Sequence record: MG673519.1
Length of the DNA stretch: 64,000 bases
Origin: Escherichia phage LAMP
Reading direction: 5' to 3' (one strand)
A program made the translations under genes and the position numbers. Of this stretch, positions 36,462 through 46,439 are shown piece by piece (position 1 is the stretch's first letter; each line of letters opens with the position of its first letter). The notes beneath the pieces are model-generated. The model saw only the letters and a list, made by a program, of their open reading frames with translations, was not told the DNA's origin and made no database searches.

Positions 36462-36943
36462 TTAGTGTGTATGCATCCAGTTTAACCCAATCTGACAATC
36501 AGAAGCCAGAGGACATTCCATGTTCAAGTACTCACCAGCCTTCTTAACACAAAGCTCGGTGTACTCTTTGAGTTTCTGTACATCATTACGGTTCACTGAG
36601 AACTGGCCCTCATCGTGCATATCAATTACCTTAGCACAACGAACTCCATCTTTCTCAATCCACTTGTTAAGGAACATCATAGCATATTTCATAACAACAG
36701 CACCAGCACATTGTAGGAGTGTGTTAAGGGCTTTATGAACCATAACCTTACCAGTGGCATCCCGTCTCATTGTAATCTTACGACCATCAACGCCAATCAA
36801 ATACCCTTGAGCAGCTTTCTCTGTCATACGATCAATGAGGATTGCAATACAAGGATTCTCTGCCAAGAAGCGTGCTCGCATCACTGAACCTTCGTCAGCT
36901 CCACCACCTACGATTGAACCAAGCTTAGCATCACCTGCCCCAT
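36462..36943 (-). CDS. DNA polymerase (family A, T7 gp5-like), exon 2 (palm C-terminal part, motif C)
   Basis: Frame open upstream of the track start (36884) to about 36943; contains VIDMHDEGQF (motif C-like). Joining to exon 1 reconstitutes ...RDNAKTFIYAFN|YGAGDAKLGSIVGG..., matching the motif B region of T7-type polymerases. Confidence 0.7.
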
Positions 36944-37247
36944 CAATAGTTCAAGCAAAGGCGCTACTCTTTGCTCCGTTCTCTTATGAACTGCTTACAG
37001 TTTCCTGTAAGATCGGACTATATCTTCATCTCCACCTTTACGTGCTGAGAGACAGGCGCTTCCGTAACACTTGTTACGTACTCCCTTCCGGGATAGTCTC
37101 TGAACTTTCCGTGACACAAACTTTTCTACATAGATCATTGATGTTTATGTCACGGCTTAGCTGCTGATTGGCATATCTTTCGACTTAGCTTTCCAGCAAT
37201 TCACCTGTTTTGCTTCTGCACATTTCTATGCAGTGAACCAATTATTT
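36944..37247 (-). ncRNA. Group I self-splicing intron (ORF-less, about 300 nt) within the DNA polymerase gene
   Basis: On the minus strand the core elements appear in order: P-like AATTGCTGGAAAG, Q-like AATCAGCAGC, R GTTCAGAGACTA, S AAGATATAGTCC. The upstream exon ends in U and the intron ends in G. Boundaries are +/-2 nt. Confidence 0.7.
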
Positions 37248-38610
37248 AGTTAAAGGCATATATAAACGTCTTCGCATTATCACGAGTAGGAAGACCAGCA
37301 AGTTTCTGGTTGTGGGAGTGGATATCACCTTCAAGAAGGATATCACGATACATAATAGCAGAAGCTAAACCACGTTCTGCCAGAGCTTTCTTAGCTGGAT
37401 TATTCTCTTCGATTGCTTCAGCAAGCATATCCCTACACTCTTTAATGAGGTAGTGAGCGAGCATACGAAGTTCAAGTCCAGAACCATCATACCCTAAGAA
37501 TACTTCTTTACCAGCGGGTATGTAATATTTGTAAGCACCTACAGGCTTATCTTTCTTCCCCGGCTTACCTTTCTCGTAAATTACGTTAGTACCTTTTCGT
37601 ATATAACAACCATCAGGAACAACGTTAGTAATAACGAAAGGACGAGAGTGATCACTGTCTGAATTATAGTCAGACTCAAACAAACTGCGACACTCATGAC
37701 CAAACAAACCACGGGAGGGAATATTAACCACGATACGATGTTTGAATCGAAAAGTTGGCGTAGCGCAGCTGTTAGCTTCTGCCGAAAGTTTACCATCTTC
37801 GCGTTCCTTTGCTATGAGTCCACTGATAAGACCTAGCCTGTGAGCCGCTACAACGCGCCTCTTAAGCAAACTTCCAACACTCCCTAGCTCGCCCCCTAAC
37901 CCTTCTTCAAGAGTCTCCTCGAGGTTTGTAGGAGCTGTAGGCCACTTGTTTGAGGTAGCTAGTGCTATCTTAATCTCATCAAACGTGATAGGTCTACGTC
38001 GGTTAGGGTTTAAACCTAAACCAAACACATAAGCCTTCATATAGTTCTTAGTCTTAAACCTAAAATGCTTCTCTAAGAACCTCCTAATATCTGCGTCAAC
38101 CATCTCGGCTGTCTGCTTCTGTTTAGCATTACCTCGCATCCAAGCTGAATACCACGCTTGGTATGTTCCATACTTTCGTATATCTTTCTTGATTTCAAAA
38201 GTATTCCAAGGTTTCTTTGATACGTTAAACTCTGGAGGAAGAAAACCCTCATCCATAAGGGCTTCTTTAACTCGTGCATCTTTCGATGGGTCAAAGTCCA
38301 CGTATTCAACACAGGTGAATGCTCCACCAATGTCTTCTCTCTTAAGGCCAACTCTATCACAATAGGCTTGAGGCCACTTCTGTAAAGCTCCAGACTTCTT
38401 AAATGGCTTCATATAAGTAGAGCCATCTAGTCTCATCTTAGGTAAGAGAGGGATCAGTTCTTTGTCGATATTAACAATAATCTCTTTAAGGAGGTGAACA
38501 TACCACCGAGCATTTCTTCGGTTGAAACTCACTCCGTGCTTCGCTTGCTTAGAGATTATATCAGCGACAGTCATCTCTGTCAAAAATGGGAGAGCGTCCG
38601 GGTTGCTCAC
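37246..38610 (-). CDS. DNA polymerase (family A, T7 gp5-like), exon 1 (through motif B); no 3'-5' exonuclease domain
   Basis: 454 aa; motif A-like LGYDGSGLELRMLAHY and motif B-like RDNAKTFIYAF; the stop codon lies at the intron junction. GTG start in the track. My base-level indexing of the 3' end disagreed with the track by 1 nt, so I kept the track coordinates. Confidence 0.8.
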   Translation of the reverse strand: MSNPDALPFLTEMTVADIISKQAKHGVSFNRRNARWYVHLLKEIIVNIDKELIPLLPKMRLDGSTYMKPFKKSGALQKWPQAYCDRVGLKREDIGGAFTCVEYVDFDPSKDARVKEALMDEGFLPPEFNVSKKPWNTFEIKKDIRKYGTYQAWYSAWMRGNAKQKQTAEMVDADIRRFLEKHFRFKTKNYMKAYVFGLGLNPNRRRPITFDEIKIALATSNKWPTAPTNLEETLEEGLGGELGSVGSLLKRRVVAAHRLGLISGLIAKEREDGKLSAEANSCATPTFRFKHRIVVNIPSRGLFGHECRSLFESDYNSDSDHSRPFVITNVVPDGCYIRKGTNVIYEKGKPGKKDKPVGAYKYYIPAGKEVFLGYDGSGLELRMLAHYLIKECRDMLAEAIEENNPAKKALAERGLASAIMYRDILLEGDIHSHNQKLAGLPTRDNAKTFIYAFN

Positions 38611-38626
38611 TTTATACTCCTTTAAA

Positions 38627-44512: not shown

Positions 44513-44521
44513 TCTTATTCC

Positions 44522-45883
44522 TTAGTTATTTGTTTCTGTGTCAAAAGAGATTCCACGACCCGCTTCATCGGCAAACCGAACTGTACGGGTTTGAGGTTCT
44601 AATACTTCAGGGTTATTAGCAACAAAGCGATCAGCGAGGCTGCGACTGACGGTCTCAGCAAGTTCCTCATGAGAAGGAATATCAAGACTACCTACCACAT
44701 CTTGGGCCACACCTTCATCAGTCCACACAGCCCTAGCAGGTGCGTTGATATCACCAACAGCGAAACCCTGACCAGAGAACTGGTGACGGCTAACAGTCAA
44801 ACCATTTGATTGACCATTAAAACGTCTAGACAACCACCGCTCAAATGAATCGCCAGTAACACCAAGAGCTTCTTCAAAAGATGTTCTACGAGTAGAGCTT
44901 AGATTTCGTGACTCTTGTGCTCTACGTCTTGCAGGAATTGCAAACACCCCCTCAATTGCATTGTGCCGATTAGGTTCATCTTCCCGACCAAGGAGATCAC
45001 CTCCTGTATTAGTTGTTAAGTTTGTTAACCCTTCAGACCAATATGCACTAATCTGGCTAGAGCCATGAATGCTTGACATTAACTGAATCTCTTCATAAGG
45101 TATATCAAAGAATCGACTCATATCTCGGTTAACACAATACTGAGCACTTGTTGTGTCCTCAATAAGAGCAACCTGACCCCGTTCGTTGACCAGATGACTA
45201 ACCGGCTGAGGTGTGGGAAGGTGTCGAGTTTGGGCCATGTATTGATATGCAGCTGCTGGAGAGGAAAATCTCAACACTTGCGAGTTAGGCCACTTCTTGT
45301 GAACATACCTGATTTCACGACTAGAAACAACCACTGGACAAGGGGCGGTCATAGCCAAGTATCCATGAGGGGTCATGAATAAGTTATCAAGAGTCATCGC
45401 ACCACGGCACATCATAGGAAAATTATCCAATACCTCTTCAATAGAAGTAGGATAATTAAACATGAATTGGATACGAACACCATTCCACTGAAACTCAATA
45501 ATATCAGTGAATGTTAATTGAGAACCCCCAGCATATGATTCGTTCGTAGCTTCAACAAGAAGAGATGAATACTCAATATCTTGTGATTCAAGCCATTCCT
45601 TCACATTGCTTTCAATCTCCCGTCCAAGCATTTGCCACTGCTCGGCTGGGATAAAGGTATTTCGAGTTCTTGGTGTTTGTCCTCTGACAATAAAGATATC
45701 AATATCATGTGGAGCTATGTTATTAAGAACAGCATCACGAATAGCTCCACCAGTAATGATAGGGCAAATACCATCTGGAATCAAGTTGTTGTTAATCAAC
45801 TGTTCAATGAAGTGACGACCAACAGTGATATCAGGTTGTTGAGCAACCTTATCTTCAATTCGGTTAATCGGGATAACAATCAT
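44522..45883 (-). CDS. Nucleotidyltransferase (Pol-beta superfamily) domain protein, CCA-adding/poly(A)-polymerase-like head
   Basis: Track ORF 44522..45940 trimmed to the internal Met just after the exonuclease stop; N-terminal GGAIRDAVLNN...HDIDIFIV matches the GG..RD...(D/E)hD NTase motif; large C-terminal region unassigned. Confidence 0.5.
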   Translation of the reverse strand: MIVIPINRIEDKVAQQPDITVGRHFIEQLINNNLIPDGICPIITGGAIRDAVLNNIAPHDIDIFIVRGQTPRTRNTFIPAEQWQMLGREIESNVKEWLESQDIEYSSLLVEATNESYAGGSQLTFTDIIEFQWNGVRIQFMFNYPTSIEEVLDNFPMMCRGAMTLDNLFMTPHGYLAMTAPCPVVVSSREIRYVHKKWPNSQVLRFSSPAAAYQYMAQTRHLPTPQPVSHLVNERGQVALIEDTTSAQYCVNRDMSRFFDIPYEEIQLMSSIHGSSQISAYWSEGLTNLTTNTGGDLLGREDEPNRHNAIEGVFAIPARRRAQESRNLSSTRRTSFEEALGVTGDSFERWLSRRFNGQSNGLTVSRHQFSGQGFAVGDINAPARAVWTDEGVAQDVVGSLDIPSHEELAETVSRSLADRFVANNPEVLEPQTRTVRFADEAGRGISFDTETNN

Positions 45884-45884
45884 T

Positions 45885-46439
45885 TTACATTTTCCAATAT
45901 AATGAAGGTGGGTCGTAAGGATCAAATCCTGTGAGTTCACACAAGTATTTATAAACCTTAACAGTTAAGTTAACGTCCTGTTCACAGTAAGTAAACATAT
46001 CTTCAGTGAAAGCATCCCATGCTTCCTCTTGCTCACCGTAATCTCCTTTAAGTTCCCCCAAGAACTCACCCCATTGCTTCAAACCGTGACCTCTTGGGCC
46101 ATGTCTAGGGTCGCCTTTCGGATACTCAGGACTGTCACCAATACGATCAGGTTTAAGATATCGACTAAGACACAGAGTGTCGAAGACGTTAAAATGATAT
46201 TTAATCAGATTGGGATATATTTTCTTCAGAGCACAAAGGTCGAAGTCAATAATGTTATGGCCCACGAGCACATCAGCTTCTGTAAGTTTACGAATCCCAT
46301 CTTCAATTTGGTGAGGCCGGTAGCCCCACCTTTCACCAGTTTCAACATCGAAAATGTAAATACACCATACTTTAGTTATATCATCGTACAGTGCGTTACT
46401 TTCGATATCAAATGCAAACACTTTCTTTTTCTTTACCAC
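45885..46439 (-). CDS. 3'-5' proofreading exonuclease (DEDD family), encoded separately from the polymerase
   Basis: 184 aa; Exo I FAFDIESN, Exo [11 protein letters not shown] and Exo III YCEQDV motifs. Confidence 0.8.

Follow-up and report, generated by a model that had tools for sequence, protein, structure and literature searches.

How can a phage run a T7-type replisome when polymerase and proofreading exonuclease are encoded far apart, and what does a phage-encoded thioredoxin do between them? The question is raised by a 64,000-nucleotide stretch of DNA from Escherichia phage LAMP (sequence record MG673519.1; hereafter the window), in which positions 36,462 to 46,439 hold an intron-containing DNA polymerase gene, a thioredoxin gene and a stand-alone 3'-5' exonuclease gene. 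Sequence and profile comparisons, together with predicted structures, make it very probable that the replisome is of the T7 type, with the equivalent of gene 5 split at the linker between exonuclease and polymerase domains. Genes beyond ~30 kb lie on the minus strand, and those at the center of the analysis are the following:

46433..48223, minus strand: T7 gp4-like bifunctional primase-helicase, 596 residues (Pfam DnaB_C, E = 1e-10; weak Toprim match)
45885..46439, minus strand: stand-alone DEDDy 3'-5' exonuclease, 184 residues (Pfam DNA_pol_A_exo1)
42289..42564, minus strand: thioredoxin, 91 residues (Pfam Thioredoxin, E = 2.1e-13)
37248..38610, minus strand: DNA polymerase exon 1 (codons 1-454 plus 1 nucleotide)
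36944..37247, minus strand: predicted group I intron, 304 nucleotides (Rfam RF00028)
36462..36943, minus strand: DNA polymerase exon 2 (Pfam DNA_pol_A, E = 5e-14; best PDB match T7 gp5, E = 3e-33)
33815..34561, minus strand: probable single-stranded DNA-binding protein (SSB), 248 residues (oligonucleotide-binding (OB)-fold core, acidic tail; phrog_6599)

In a megablast comparison of positions 36000..48300 (100 phage records), the best matches are phages Bas93, Bas92 and Bas94 of the BASEL collection (97-98% identity), followed by phiEco32 and its relatives (92-94%). The entire window is collinear with Bas93, the non-matching segments all being short, and the region is also collinear with phiEco32. 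Given this near-identity and collinearity, we assign the window to a Kuravirus-type (Gordonclarkvirinae), phiEco32-like coliphage of C3 morphotype. The Bas93 and phiEco32 counterparts of 46433..48223 are annotated as DNA primase/helicase.

The exonuclease open reading frame (ORF) matches Pfam DNA_pol_A_exo1 (PF01612) with E = 2.8e-9 and 37.5 bits, against a cut-off of 23.6. Every carboxylate of the Exo I (DxE), Exo II (NxxxD) and Exo III (YxxxD) motifs is present, and none of D11, E13, N62, D67, Y151 and D155 varies among the 49 stand-alone homologues (160-195 residues long); the aligned counterparts of the catalytic residues in T7 gp5 are D5, E7, D65 and D174. The original prediction of a separate exonuclease with DEDD motifs at these coordinates therefore stands, the residues being of the DEDDy type, and because they are invariant across the 49 homologues the protein looks functional. 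Its sole solved relatives in a PDB search are T7 gp5 chains, over residues 3-182 (E = 2e-11), and by profile it is closest to the N-terminal domains that fused T7-like polymerases carry (E ~1e-40; T7 gp5, 9e-34). By these alignments the exonuclease is the counterpart of the N-terminal domain of T7 gp5, and the PHROG families that it matches carry the name "DNA polymerase exonuclease subunit". The gene has a GTG start that overlaps the primase-helicase stop codon (GTGGTAA, a 7-nucleotide overlap), an arrangement that probably couples its translation to that of the gp4-like gene.

The polymerase is encoded in two exons, 38610..37248 and 36943..36462, whose spliced product of 614 residues is collinear with the product of the intronless phiEco32 gene, gp53. 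Exon 1 encodes the thumb, with a segment resembling the T7 thioredoxin-binding domain (residues 55-110) and a basic helical insertion (residues 135-227), as well as motifs A and B, and exon 2 the C-terminal part of the fingers and palm, including motif C. In an alignment of 102 sequences the catalytic residues are invariant or nearly so: D375, E380 and R382 in motif A (DxSxxExR); R443, K447, Y451, Y455 and G456 in motif B (RxxxKxxxFxxxYG); and H564, D565 and E566 in motif C (HDE). The AlphaFold2 model has a predicted local distance difference test score (pLDDT) of 92.6, and T7 gp5 accounts for all of its top PDB matches; Foldseek scores T7 gp5 at 2e-26, compared with 1e-15 for Bst polymerase. 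Both sequence and predicted right-hand fold thus place the polymerase in family A, in the T7 gp5 subgroup. As had been proposed, exon 1 carries no exonuclease motifs: the Pfam search gave no exonuclease match, alignments with T7 and with fused relatives start exactly at the exonuclease/polymerase domain boundary, and the model opens with the thumb helices.

The interruption between the exons matches Rfam RF00028 over the full length of the model (1-253) with 100.8 bits, against a gathering score of 50, and its junctions (37248|37247 and 36944|36943) were deduced by comparison with phiEco32 gp53. U is the last base of the 5' exon and G that of the intron; the junctions read AACT|AAAT and TTG|ATGG, and removal of the segment restores ..AFNYGAGD.. 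as in phiEco32. We therefore regard 37247..36944 as a group I intron with a P3-P9 core, predicted to splice. It contains no ORF and sits in the Tyr455 codon (T|AT), within the YG at the end of motif B. The intron that Bas93 carries at the same place is larger and holds an "endonuclease VII" ORF; phiEco32 and SGF2 lack an intron there. Among the database relatives, many are exon-1 products of ~450 residues, from which it follows that interruptions are common in this part of the gene.

Are polymerase and exonuclease then two halves of one T7 gp5-like enzyme, as originally predicted? We conclude that they very probably are: among solved structures each is closest to T7 gp5, and the two proteins part at the exonuclease/polymerase linker. 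By sequence, the polymerase matches gp5 with E = 3e-33 in a PDB search. When a profile of the polymerase family, which includes fused members of ~600 residues, was aligned with gp5 by hhalign, the probability was 100% and E = 1e-75, with the alignment running end to end and collinear across both domains. Over the polymerase domain, the fused relatives share 43-48% identity with the window polymerase. A related-locus search on motif B patterns returned mostly distant marine T7-like fused polymerases, and these marine loci were used only as fused comparators and as negative controls for thioredoxin. Split members comprise the C3 phages, the LUZ24-like phages (with a "DNA polymerase part II") and many metagenomic contigs. 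The exonuclease gene lies at the 3' end of the helicase gene, or one small gene away, in every split lineage examined: the two are adjacent in Privateer, L088, Vp_R1 and the LUZ24-like L007, and a single small endonuclease gene stands between them in phage 7-11. The gap before the polymerase gene ranges from ~2 kb, holding one ORF, in LUZ24-like L007 to 7 kb or more in Kuravirus, Privateer, 7-11, L088 and Vp_R1; in the window it is 7,275 nucleotides from exonuclease stop to polymerase start, in agreement with the ~7 kb first estimated.

This distance, and the nucleotide-salvage genes that adjoin the exonuclease gene, would also suit an independent nuclease serving, for example, host DNA breakdown or recombination and forming no part of the polymerase. 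We consider this very unlikely: the nearest profile relatives of the protein are the N-terminal domains of fused T7-like polymerases, the polymerase begins precisely where the exonuclease domains of its fused relatives stop, in this lineage the exonuclease gene is invariably found after the helicase gene, and the phage already has a separate 5'-3' exonuclease (31532..32350). In the split-enzyme interpretation, the exonuclease would bind the polymerase non-covalently and proofread in trans.

The other components of the presumed replisome carry acidic C-terminal tails, as in T7. The primase-helicase C-terminus (46433..46480) is acidic with an aromatic last residue (..NQADGTSPW), and the same holds in the clade, where ..TSPW of the window corresponds to ..SKPF, ..SRPF, ..SLPF and ..ERVF in L006, L088, L089 and L090; these tails resemble that of T7 gp4 (..NDTDF), which binds the polymerase. 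Downstream of the polymerase gene, all relatives conserve a gene for which the window version is the 248-residue ORF 33815..34561, listed in PHROGs (phrog_6599) as uncharacterised in function. Its disordered, acidic tail ends in ..EDDNDSPF, and nearly all homologues have an acidic tail ending in DDxPF, DEF or GEW; one ends in DFDDDIPF, the tip of E. coli SSB. AlphaFold2 predicts a confident beta-barrel (OB-fold) core followed by the disordered tail. An hhalign comparison and a PDB profile search found neither T7 gp2.5 nor any solved structure. From model and tail, the protein is probably the phage SSB of the replisome. As in T7, the thumb of the polymerase would offer basic surfaces to which the acidic, aromatic-ended tails of helicase and SSB bind.

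In T7 gp5, the thioredoxin-binding domain (TBD) is inserted between thumb helices H and H1; it is ~76 residues long and contains the residues that contact thioredoxin. Residues 55-110 of the window polymerase (~56 residues) sit at this site: HMMER, BLASTP and hhalign agree in aligning residues ~64-140 with T7 ~296-368, and the part of T7 gp5 homologous to the segment is 284-338. T7 is reported to contact thioredoxin through E319, T327, V329, E330 and the 325-330 strand (PMC5984650), and E92, F98, T99, V101 and E102 of the window polymerase match T7 E319, Y326, T327, V329 and E330. Missing are T7 residues 262-283, the first ~22 of the TBD, with the Y265 contact and loop A. The thioredoxin-binding insertion that the original prediction proposed to look for in the thumb is thus found in part: the site and the contact strand are kept, and the first ~22 residues of the domain are absent. 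According to AlphaFold2, the segment folds by itself, with no partner, as a small sheet-plus-helix unit (pLDDT about 90).

All 102 members of the family invariantly carry the GGPF(T/S) strand, among them the LUZ24-like phages and Vp_R1, which keep it in the absence of a thioredoxin gene; as judged from the alignment, the contact strand is ancestral to the whole polymerase clade. With the strand equally invariant in phages lacking a thioredoxin gene, the first ~22 TBD residues of T7 missing, and relatives with the same polymerase and exonuclease doing without a thioredoxin, the TBD-like segment is no proof that this polymerase pairs with the phage protein. The E102 position is E in Kuraviruses and W in Privateer and 7-11. 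We found no polymerase feature that cleanly divides thioredoxin-encoding from thioredoxin-less phages; and although C84 aligns with T7 C313, the family has either A or C at this position, so it is no conserved cysteine.

Further along the thumb, residues 135-227 (~37930..38208, minus strand) form an all-helical insertion of 93 residues with a net charge of +11, which is found neither in T7 nor in the fused relatives and is shorter in LUZ24-like phages. The model suggests that it may offer a surface for DNA or for acidic tails. Relative to T7, the front basic patch (VKWKRRW) is deleted and ~35 residues are inserted ahead of motif A.

The thioredoxin gene itself was correctly predicted at 42289..42564: the 91-residue product matches Pfam PF00085 with 50.6 bits, against a cut-off of 23.5, and has a C12-A-P-C15 active site and a cis-proline, I55-P56 corresponding to I75-P76 of E. 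coli TrxA. It begins at the equivalent of TrxA residue ~22, so that the N-terminal beta1-alpha1 unit is missing, and its motif is QCAPC, not WCGPC (W31 to Q; D26 to K). Equivalents of TrxA R73, I75, P76 and G92 are kept, with L in place of K90 and S in place of G74. The family comprises 15 clusters, all of 74-92 residues, and the CxPC motif and cis-proline occur in all homologues (down to ~40% identity) except one N-terminally truncated entry. We thus assign the protein to the thioredoxin fold as a short, non-canonical member, presumably similar to minimal redoxins such as T4 NrdC and NrdH.

By tblastn, thioredoxin homologues are found in 128 phage records, mostly C3-type podophages of Enterobacterales, and in Kuravirus, Privateer and 7-11 the gene lies inside the replication block. 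One study (PMC4281155) describes the protein as conserved throughout the C3 phages and detected it by mass spectrometry. The phage encodes no ribonucleotide reductase (RNR). Privateer encodes class Ia NrdAB. Vibrio phage Vp_R1, a member of Privateer's family, also has a class Ia RNR and shares the polymerase, exonuclease, helicase and SSB-like gene; its entire genome contains no thioredoxin-like ORF. Likewise, contigs L087 and L088, with polymerases 48-49% identical to that of the window, have no thioredoxin within 10 kb of the polymerase gene, and tblastn detected no homologue in LUZ24-like phages. Since relatives with the same polymerase do without it, the thioredoxin is no constant partner of this polymerase type; and since Vp_R1 has a class Ia RNR and no thioredoxin, neither is it a constant partner of a phage RNR. 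Its patchy occurrence within the polymerase clade marks it as a lineage-specific accessory of the enterobacterial branch.

What, then, does the thioredoxin do? We favor a redox role over that of an obligate processivity clamp, with a confidence that amounts to an even chance: during replication, the protein would serve to keep thiol enzymes, be it the host class Ia RNR or others, in the reduced state. The original suggestion that it might feed a reductase survives in part, in that a phage enzyme is excluded as client because no RNR is encoded, whereas the host RNR remains a candidate. In cyanophage Syn5 the phage thioredoxin is redox-active, and AlphaFold3 places host thioredoxins, not the phage protein, on the polymerase (10.1101/2025.10.05.680603). 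Several points weigh against our overall reading, in which a redox thioredoxin is combined with proofreading in trans. The binding of exonuclease to polymerase is something that we infer; the redox role has no obvious client in the phage (there is no RNR, and ThyX uses NADPH and FAD); and the canonical W31 and D26 are lost from the thioredoxin.

Other points of this kind speak directly for a clamp, that is, for the phage thioredoxin as a dedicated processivity subunit on the TBD-like thumb, giving a three-part holoenzyme that has no need of host TrxA. The polymerase is closest to T7 gp5 and retains the thioredoxin-touching residues E92, F98, T99, V101 and E102 (T7 E319, Y326, T327, V329 and E330); the thioredoxin keeps the equivalents of R73, I75, cis-P76 and G92 along with its CxxC; its gene lies in the replication module of two phage families regardless of RNR, and beside the replication genes in all C3 phages, even those lacking one; and the hypothesis is in print (PMC7881722). 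Nevertheless, we regard such a clamp as possible rather than likely. The GGPF(T/S) strand is just as invariant (102/102) where thioredoxin is absent, as in LUZ24-like phages and Vp_R1, the mini-domain at the TBD site is predicted to be well folded on its own (pLDDT about 90), and T7 262-283, with Y265 and loop A, is missing. In Privateer and 7-11, both of which encode a thioredoxin, the E330 equivalent is W, and in the thioredoxin itself K90 and G74 are replaced by L and S. The +11 helical insertion could give the polymerase an intrinsic grip on DNA, and the Syn5 prediction favors host over phage thioredoxin (10.1101/2025.10.05.680603). That host TrxA is the clamp, as in T7, with the phage protein serving redox or stress functions unrelated to the polymerase, strikes us as improbable. 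In its favor are the T7-like contact strand, which thioredoxin-less phages also conserve, the canonical interface residues G74 and K90, present in E. coli TrxA and missing from the phage protein, and the Syn5 AlphaFold3 result, which shows the same pattern (10.1101/2025.10.05.680603). The ordered thumb mini-domain predicted without a partner argues against it too, and the BASEL paper mentions neither thioredoxin nor trxA (nor, for that matter, DNA polymerase or an intron).

The space between exonuclease and polymerase genes is filled by ~17 nucleotide-metabolism and small genes, which, besides the thioredoxin gene, include:

44522..45883, minus strand: nucleotidyltransferase-like protein, 453 residues (phrog_12715, E = 3e-262)
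43979..44512, minus strand: dCTP deaminase (Pfam DCD, E = 9e-34)
42811..43422, minus strand: Dps/ferritin-like protein (Pfam Ferritin, E = 3e-7; phrog_3636)
41617..42273, minus strand: flavin-dependent thymidylate synthase ThyX (Pfam Thy1, E = 9e-44)
41258..41614, minus strand: Nlig-Ia domain protein, 118 residues (Pfam Nlig-Ia, E = 2.5e-35)
40105..40854, minus strand: PhoH-like ATPase (Pfam PhoH, E = 2e-56)

The nucleotidyltransferase-like gene, whose product has no Pfam match, starts 1 nucleotide past the exonuclease stop codon and opens the inserted block; a 150-nucleotide segment of it (44639..44788) is not in Bas93. The start codon of the Dps/ferritin-like gene is uncertain (a 192-residue version is annotated in Bas93), and the ThyX gene lies 15 nucleotides downstream of the thioredoxin gene. 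The Nlig-Ia protein consists of the NAD+-binding Ia domain of DNA ligase alone; relatives label it "DNA ligase", yet it is much too short for a ligase. The simplest reading of the comparisons is that one fission occurred at the linker and that nucleotide-metabolism genes then accreted in the gap. The module, which is the standard replication module of phiEco32-like (C3-morphotype) podophages, consists of the gp4-like primase-helicase gene, the overlapping exonuclease gene, the metabolic genes of the gap, the exonuclease-less polymerase and, last, the probable SSB.

Upstream of the primase-helicase gene, between it and a gamma-glutamyl cyclotransferase-like gene, the window has an HNH_3 plus AP2 homing-endonuclease ORF (48416..48937, minus strand) that is not in Bas93, and a tRNA gene lies at 61374..61446 (minus strand; Rfam, 73.6 bits). 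The motif TAATGTAT, reported as a promoter consensus for the related phage SU10, occurs at 39731..39738 (minus strand), upstream of the polymerase block, and at 34622..34629 (minus strand), 61 nucleotides upstream of the SSB-like gene. As a promoter signal we set it aside: 6 matches across the window, with 2.5 expected, are not significant on their own.

The split of exonuclease and polymerase is already known, since PHROGs names the exonuclease subunit and RefSeq names both this subunit and the exonuclease-less polymerase; it has been annotated since 2008 and is common to hundreds of sequenced phages. The RefSeq record of phiEco32 lists gp53 as "DNA polymerase, lacks 5'-3' and 3'-5' exonuclease domains", gp74 as "DNA polymerase exonuclease subunit" and gp65 as "thioredoxin", and LUZ24-like phages are annotated with "DNA polymerase part I/II". 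The processivity-factor hypothesis was published in 2021 for the Privateer proteins, and both roles proposed for the thioredoxin at the outset, in processivity and with a reductase, are already found there (PMC7881722). New, as read from the alignments, are the thioredoxin-contacting strand of the T7 TBD that the thumb keeps, invariant even in relatives without thioredoxin, and the finding that Vp_R1 has the same polymerase, exonuclease and helicase and no thioredoxin; the lack of a phage RNR and the extra, strongly basic helical thumb insertion are likewise new. We consider the importance modest. The question is what purpose a phage-encoded thioredoxin serves alongside a T7-type polymerase and no phage RNR, and the comparative results sharpen it: the contact strand is ancestral to the clade, and the thioredoxin is patchy. 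If the phage thioredoxin did act as clamp, the phage would be free of the host trxA dependence that limits T7, and it would provide the first demonstrated case of a thioredoxin processivity factor encoded by a virus. Bas92-94, which are nearly identical phages, come from a collection of E. coli K-12 phages.

Compared with the T7 replisome (gp5 with E. coli TrxA, gp4 and gp2.5), the LAMP system has a polymerase of the same lineage by sequence and fold, the same DEDDy exonuclease, a gp4-like fused primase-helicase and the same order of helicase, exonuclease and polymerase. Also shared are a thumb insertion at the TBD site with a conserved thioredoxin-contact strand, and acidic, aromatic-ended C-terminal tails on the helicase and the presumed SSB. 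Unlike in T7, exonuclease and polymerase are encoded by separate genes 7.3 kb apart, the TBD lacks 262-283 and the VKWKRRW patch is deleted, whereas the thumb has gained the 93-residue basic helical insertion and ~35 residues stand before motif A. LAMP encodes its own thioredoxin, a short and non-canonical one, and the presumed SSB has no detectable sequence similarity to gp2.5.

Closer to LAMP, phiEco32 gp53, gp74 and gp65 and the corresponding genes in Bas92-94, SU10, Privateer and 7-11 constitute the same system; with the genes of Bas92-94 and phiEco32, those of the window share 93-98% DNA identity. The window polymerase differs from that of phiEco32, which has no intron, and that of Bas93, whose intron is larger and has an endonuclease ORF, in its 304-nucleotide ORF-less intron, and the window has the HNH-AP2 endonuclease gene (48416..48937) in addition to what the phiEco32/Bas92-94 group carries. 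The LUZ24-like Pseudomonas phages (Bruynoghevirus) belong to the same polymerase clade (39-41% full-length identity), are split at the same exonuclease/polymerase linker, have the exonuclease gene directly 3' of the helicase gene and, in some cases, an endonuclease-containing interruption in the polymerase gene; they differ from the window in a gap of ~2 kb with one ORF, a shorter thumb insertion and no detected thioredoxin. The T7-like cyanophage Syn5 also combines a phage thioredoxin with a T7-type polymerase, and there, too, a role as RNR reductant has been debated against one as processivity factor (10.1101/2025.10.05.680603); unlike the LAMP phage, Syn5 encodes its own RNR and has an unsplit polymerase.

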